Notes under the pieces: model-generated | What the model saw: the letters and a program-made list of their open reading frames with translations, nothing else | Database searches by the model: none | What the model was told of the DNA's origin: nothing | Source: Escherichia coli | Lineage (GTDB): Bacteria > Pseudomonadota > Gammaproteobacteria > Enterobacterales > Enterobacteriaceae | Direction: 5' to 3' (one strand) | DNA length: 64,000 nucleotides | Assembly: GCF_003334815.1 (NCBI RefSeq) | Contig: NZ_QOWO01000009.1 | Shown: positions 50,397-50,418 of the stretch, piece after piece | Layout: every line of letters begins with the position of its first letter | Numbering within the stretch: position 1 is the first letter of the stretch | Program-made: the position numbers and the translations under genes

Positions 50397-50418
50397 AATT
50401 GTGATGACGATCACACAT
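50397..50418. promoter_or_regulatory. consensus CRP binding site in hpt-gcd divergent region
   Basis: TGTGA-TGACGA-TCACA (50400-50415), perfect match to both CRP half-sites with 6-nt spacer; centred about 70 nt upstream of gcd ATG. Confidence 0.6.

Follow-up and report, generated by a model that had tools for sequence, protein, structure and literature searches.

Introduction

Repressor sites for CRP overlap promoters or lie downstream of them (Shimada 2011, PMC3105977), and the collection of sites in Table S4 of that study contains several close relatives of the one described here. At the CRP-repressed promoters of gdhA, proP, aceBAK, ptsH and rpoH, CRP is centred at -32.5, -34.5, -30.5, -35.5 and -27.5, respectively. 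As at gcd, the centre lies at about -27 to -36, where CRP overlaps the contacts of RNA polymerase and is annotated as a repressor. Related systems are also found among divergent promoters in which a single CRP dimer is annotated with opposite signs, namely guaBA (activated) and xseA (repressed), argG (activated) and metY (repressed), and yiaK (activated) and yiaJ (repressed). In these pairs, and in gcd/hpt, the promoter overlapped by CRP is repressed and the other is annotated as activated from an upstream site. The gcd-hpt region is itself one of 11 divergent promoter pairs with a single CRP site (Shimada 2011, PMC3105977). Two further points of reference are the class I lac promoter, where CRP is bound upstream (at -61.5) as at hpt, and the ArcA-repressed promoters of carbon oxidation, among which gcd is a listed direct target with an ArcA box adjoining its CRP site (Park 2013, PLoS Genet 9:e1003839).

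The region analysed here is part of a 64-kb stretch of E. coli chromosome (the window). A preliminary description of this DNA had noted a perfect CRP consensus site between gcd and hpt but had not recognised it as one already on record. The palindrome is an already catalogued CRP operator, RegulonDB ECK120011452 (Shimada 2011, PLoS One 6:e20081, Tables S3 and S4): sequence, position and targets are the same, no difference was found, and the two are one object, whose sites, targets and sign of regulation are all known. Beyond what is known, our analysis adds comparative evidence for ownership of the operator by gcd and a few natural variants. The comparative evidence refines the annotated dual regulation slightly, in that the site travels with gcd and is apparently dispensable for hpt. 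The operator also has value as a positive control, in which a genuine, strong CRP operator was picked from raw sequence.

A perfect CRP palindrome between gcd and hpt

The hpt gene (hypoxanthine phosphoribosyltransferase, 178 aa; 49735-50271, minus strand, ATG at 50271) and the gcd gene (PQQ-dependent membrane glucose dehydrogenase, 796 aa; 50477-52867, plus strand, ATG at 50477) are divergent and separated by a 205-bp intergenic region. The intergenic region has 100% identity to that of K-12 DH1, and gcd was assigned from the DH1 annotation in RefSeq. A motif search located an exact TGTGA-N6-TCACA, TGTGATGACGATCACA, at 50400-50415 (no strand), where it had been reported, and this is the sole perfect match in the window. 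Over the same 16 positions the exact match reaches further, to TGTGAT-N4-ATCACA, and 16 of the 22 positions of the longer sequence AATTGTGATGACGATCACACAT (50397-50418) agree with the classical CRP consensus. Measured from the centre of the site, 50407.5, the gcd ATG is 69.5 nt away and the hpt ATG 136.5 nt, in good agreement with the earlier estimates of about 70 and about 135 nt. Searches with Rfam covariance models on both strands of 49600-50700, which takes in the intergenic region and the leaders, gave no match at E ≤ 1.

When the window was shuffled 100 times with preservation of dinucleotides, the perfect motif occurred at a mean of 0.05 per window, with at least one match in 5 of the 100 shuffles. 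A palindrome that arose by chance and has no regulatory role would be compatible with these 5 shuffled windows, but the promoter position, the conservation specific to the half-sites, the recovery by SELEX and the expression data all argue against it, and we consider its probability close to nil.

The site has a substantial prior record. Two RegulonDB rows in Table S4 of Shimada 2011 (PMC3105977) describe it: one gives gcd as the target of a repressor at -31.5 and carries AATTGTGATGACGATCACACAT, and the other gives hpt as the target of an activator at -65.5 and carries TGTGATCGTCATCACA. Genomic SELEX-chip placed a CRP peak with the same 16-mer in gcd<>hpt at K-12 position 141294 (Table S3), and both genes are among the known CRP targets that SELEX recovered (Shimada 2011, PMC3105977). 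K-12 coordinates equal 191702 minus window coordinates, which converts the centre of our site to 141294.5. In a microarray study of a strain with constitutively active CRP*, gcd was down-regulated (ratio 0.4). Control of gcd by cAMP-CRP, as the preliminary description had proposed, is therefore on record for the exact sequence (repressor row and SELEX-chip peak, with gcd down in CRP*), and the possible control of hpt has its counterpart in the activator row for the same 22-mer and in the naming of gcd-hpt as a single-CRP divergent pair. No sign of regulation had been given; the catalogue has repression of gcd and activation of hpt, a sign that rests on the RegulonDB rows as they stand in Shimada 2011 and on the one CRP* microarray. 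Literature searches on hpt with cAMP-CRP and on gcd with Crp ChIP-exo found no report. The primary papers behind the RegulonDB entry we take to be Yamada 1993 (J Bacteriol 175:568), Zheng 2004 (NAR 32:5874) and Grainger 2005 (PNAS 102:17693).

Our preferred reading, with a probability of roughly 0.88, is that the palindrome is the documented cAMP-CRP operator common to the divergent gcd and hpt promoters. The exact motif, the RegulonDB rows, the SELEX-chip peak, the matrix score and the conserved half-sites all identify 50400-50415 as its core.

Motif strength and other CRP matches in the window

The strength of the site was assessed with a symmetrised weight matrix built from the 226 other unique CRP cores of Shimada 2011 Table S4, the gcd/hpt site being left out. 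It scored 14.5 bits (matrix maximum, 17.1; median known site, 7.9), which places it 8th of 227 known sites and first among all matrix matches in the window. Among the 226 other RegulonDB CRP sites of Table S4, just 10 have two perfect half-sites, in accordance with the earlier remark that perfect sites are rare, and the longer form TGTGAT-N4-ATCACA is common to just 4 of them. In its perfect core and high rank the gcd site differs from the gdhA, proP, aceBAK, ptsH and rpoH sites, as it does in also facing a divergent promoter. Based on the motif score and the SELEX recovery, a high affinity for CRP is plausible.

Second among the matrix matches is TGTGGTGAAGTTCACA (9330-9345, 12.7 bits), in the stretch from the degP stop to the cdaR start. 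The tables of Shimada 2011 do not contain it, but it is bound by Crp-cAMP according to PMC6390033; it is also given as a "newly discovered" site in a Footprint-seq preprint (PMC12871828), Table 1 of which covers novel sites only. That the runner-up is an independently published CRP site supports the matrix scan.

Three lower-scoring matches were also observed. The RegulonDB CRP sites of sfsA (GGTGACGGAGTTCACC, 8.1 bits) and acnB (TGTAAACAGATTAACA, 9.7 bits) are present in the window at 30114-30129 and 60213-60228, in that order, and a match of 11.5 bits, TTTGAGGATTTTCACA (50020-50035), falls inside the hpt coding sequence and is probably due to chance.

The gcd promoter, the ArcA box and repression

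A promoter scan returned ATGACG-18-TATAAT for gcd, with 10 of 12 consensus matches, and the same promoter is assigned to gcd by Shimada 2014. Its -35-like hexamer ATGACG (50404-50409, plus strand) is inside the spacer of the CRP site, and its -10 hexamer TATAAT occupies 50428-50433 (plus strand), within a CTATAaT that shows no or almost no variation in 19 species. The RegulonDB distance of -31.5 places the transcription start at G50439 (plus strand), a base that is invariant in the alignment. This position is independently consistent with the numbering of the ArcA site at K-12 141245-141265, given as "-2 to 30" of the gcd start (Park 2013, PLoS Genet 9:e1003839). With its centre at -31.5 from this start, the CRP site overlaps the -35 hexamer and abuts the -10 hexamer. 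Since ATGACG varies between species in the 19-sequence alignment, it appears to be a weak or dispensable -35, and the gcd -35 was ruled out as the cause of conservation in the site region. TTAAAA-18-TAAAAT was likewise ruled out as the conserved gcd promoter, its -10 being variable across species.

The ArcA-P box TTGCTACTAAAATATTAATGA (50437-50457, plus strand), an anaerobic repressor site of gcd, is an exact match to the box of Park 2013, and ArcA action at gcd is documented there by ChIP-seq peaks, the predicted box and a 20-fold derepression in an arcA mutant (Park 2013, PLoS Genet 9:e1003839). The box is located directly 3′ of the gcd -10 and coincides with a strongly conserved block after the CRP site, the conservation of which it explains. 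It is a separate operator for a separate signal (redox) and falls outside the CRP palindrome.

CRP binding (by SELEX) and the repressive mode of action at gcd are documented in the data cited above. In the absence of glucose, at high cAMP, 50400-50415 would be occupied by a CRP dimer; centred at -31.5 of gcd, the dimer would cover the -35 region and abut the -10, so that RNA polymerase would be blocked and gcd repressed. Steric occlusion is, from this position, the most likely mechanism. Production of the enzyme would be largely confined to conditions with glucose (low cAMP) and oxygen, the requirement for oxygen arising because ArcA represses from the adjacent box at the start site. Such inverse wiring to cAMP, together with gating by ArcA, fits the physiology of a periplasmic glucose oxidase linked to the respiratory chain. 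On the other side, the same dimer would stand at -65.5 of hpt, upstream of an extended -10 promoter, where it is catalogued as an activator.

Conservation of the site across species

With Hpt as the probe we collected loci from 80 species and located gcd by tblastn. Besides E. coli, gcd is divergent from hpt in 22 species, which include members of Escherichia, Citrobacter, Enterobacter, Leclercia, Cedecea, Pseudocitrobacter, Phytobacter, Siccibacter, Mangrovibacter and Shimwellia, and the spacer between the two genes measures 193-207 bp. In every one of these 22 species, a CRP site that scores 10-16 bits is found 136.5-137.5 bp away from the hpt ATG. At the 54 loci in which gcd does not adjoin hpt, two had matches of at least 10 bits within 350 bp, compared with about 1.5 expected by chance from the density of such matches in the window, and neither falls at the orthologous position. 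The association between gcd adjacency and site presence has a Fisher p of 4e-17, a value inflated by shared ancestry, as species are not independent; the informative cases are the few gains and losses within clades.

Alignment of 19 sequences revealed that GTGA (G50401-A50404) and TCAC (T50411-C50414) are invariant and that the six central bases are free. No indel separates the CRP site from the gcd -10 in any of the 19. Conservation is also seen in islands at the hpt extended -10, at the gcd -10, at G50439 together with the ArcA box, and at an AAAG (50389-50392). A Dam methylation site (GATC) at 50409-50412, within the CRP site, is not kept in Citrobacter, Pseudocitrobacter and Cedecea, and is for this reason probably incidental.

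These patterns bear on whether another regulator of the CRP/FNR family could bind the palindrome. FNR recognizes TTGAT-N4-ATCAA; the inner TGAT....ATCA of our site suits both motifs, and FNR would offer an explanation for the oxygen regulation of gcd. The discriminating bases G50401 and C50414 of GTGA/TCAC are, however, invariant in the 19 species, the site was selected by purified cAMP-CRP in SELEX, and oxygen control is accounted for by the ArcA box, all of which makes an FNR operator extremely unlikely. As an FNR site the sequence was rejected, since it reads TGTGAT....ATCACA and does not have the T that FNR sites carry in second position in each half-site.

Several natural rearrangements separate the fates of the two genes. 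In Pluralibacter gergoviae (locus L023, 1271-2501), a 249-aa ORF (1528-2277, on the gcd strand) is inserted between gcd and hpt. A CRP site, AGTGATCGGTATCACA (12.8 bits, L023 1332-1347), is still found 68.5 bp from the gcd ATG; hpt is without a CRP site, and no sequence within 200 bp of it matches TGnTAnAnT. The hpt loci of Citrobacter youngae CCUG 30791, Citrobacter sp. FP75 and Klebsiella sp. BIGb0407 have neither an adjoining gcd nor a CRP site, and the hpt extended -10, TGGTATACT, is kept in both of the gcd-less Citrobacter. In E. albertii NBRC 107761 (L001 2121-2500), gcd is reduced to a C-terminal remnant of about aa 664-796. The deletion, which ends inside the CRP site, removed the first 663 or so codons of gcd together with its promoter and the half-site on the gcd side, leaving the hpt-proximal TCACA half-site beside an intact hpt promoter. 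The metagenome-assembled genome CTSoil_132 (L004 1884-2500) has a gcd of which about aa 682-796 remain, joined to a new N-terminus; despite this truncation it retains a perfect CRP site, TGTGATAATGATCACA, at the orthologous position.

Based on Pluralibacter, the lineages that lost gcd, and the widespread occurrence of the hpt extended -10 without a CRP site, the site follows gcd and not hpt, whose promoter can apparently do without it.

The hpt promoter and its catalogued activation

By sequence reading, the hpt promoter has an extended -10, TGgTATACT, at 50349-50357 (minus strand, read 50357-50349), which corresponds to the invariant island AGTATAcCAG in the alignment. The start predicted from it, at about 50342, equals the position implied by the RegulonDB distance of -65.5 (50342, minus strand), which is 7 nt downstream of the -10 hexamer at a base that is at least 90% conserved. 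The -35 region, CCGCGA, is poor. The promoter TTAATA-18-TATAGG given for hpt by Shimada 2014 was rejected: it is the gcd -10 region read in reverse, and CRP would come to lie downstream of its start. We prefer the extended -10 because it fits the -65.5 distance and is kept where gcd is absent.

From this start the CRP centre is at -65.5 in E. coli and at -65.5 to -66.5 in other species. Class I CRP sites are positioned near -61.5, -71.5, -82.5 or -92.5, where CRP and RNA polymerase share one face of the helix. With RegulonDB starts, -65.5 falls between the -61.5 and -71.5 clusters of Table S4, and direct activation of hpt by CRP is therefore mechanistically uncertain. In comparison with lac, hpt has a poor -35, CRP at -65.5 rather than -61.5 or -71.5, and an extended -10. 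Unlike the activated members of the guaBA/xseA, argG/metY and yiaK/yiaJ pairs, hpt combines a self-sufficient extended -10 with an off-phase -65.5, and the activation arm is for these reasons doubtful. In nearly all 80 species, among them Vibrio, Photobacterium and Aeromonas, hpt is preceded by a TGnTAnAnT sequence, also where gcd or a CRP site is lacking, and these comparative data argue against a strong dependence of the hpt promoter on CRP. Activation of hpt is probably modest and secondary, given a self-sufficient promoter and a site whose retention follows gcd.

Pressed further, the same observations suggest that the palindrome is effectively an operator of gcd only, with hpt expressed constitutively from its extended -10 and its activation by CRP negligible or indirect. 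This is a possible reading, with the odds somewhat against it. It accommodates the conservation of the hpt TGnTAnAnT as far as Vibrio and Aeromonas in the absence of a CRP site, the loss of the site with gcd and its persistence beside gcd in Pluralibacter, a spacing that does not match the phase of the -61.5 and -71.5 clusters, and the placing of the hpt side among constitutive promoters by Shimada 2014. It conflicts with the RegulonDB record of hpt as CRP-activated and with the retention of the site in the CTSoil_132 locus, where gcd is truncated. The distance from CRP to the hpt -10, which is held within 1 bp in 22 species, could also reflect constraint. Were it true, selection would keep the site for repression of gcd alone and the pair would not be truly two-sided. 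Loss of the site, as in P276M (see below) or, together with gcd, in E. albertii, would then free periplasmic glucose oxidation from catabolite control and leave purine salvage unharmed.

The converse, that the site mainly serves class I activation of hpt and that repression of gcd is incidental, draws on the location of the site upstream of hpt, the poor -35 and the activator label in RegulonDB. We judge it very unlikely: the site tracks gcd through natural rearrangements and deletions, its distance from the gcd -10 does not vary at all in the alignment, and in most species the hpt promoter needs no activator. A shared operator with its main effect on gcd remains our preferred reading.

The AAAG block at 50389-50392 (no strand; invariant alignment columns A127-G130) is situated on the hpt side of the CRP site, before the hpt promoter. 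It is invariant in 19 species and lies at about -47 to -50 of both the gcd and the hpt starts. It may possibly be an alpha-CTD or UP-like contact.

Variation within E. coli

Among 5426 complete E. coli genomes, 5425 contain the 361 bp surrounding the site at an identity of at least 95%. A 60-nt query with the site in its middle has a perfect counterpart in 4761 of 5423 genomes. The variants that we sampled spare both half-sites: the change is in the flank in O157:H7 (G50395A) and in the spacer in ES5 and OkiPb01679.

One genome of the 5425, P276M (NZ_CP044293.1; L081 730-760, equivalent to window 50402-50419), has CGGGATGTAGACGATCTACATAGCAG in place of TGATGACGATCACACATG, with a net gain of 8 nt. 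The replacement is a 26-nt palindromic stretch unrelated to the CRP site, and represents either a natural knockout of the operator or an assembly artefact.

The gcd-hpt region (50273-50477) also occurs in three records with a plasmid label, and 1 of the 5426 complete genomes is without it; mislabelled replicons or a deletion are the likely explanations.
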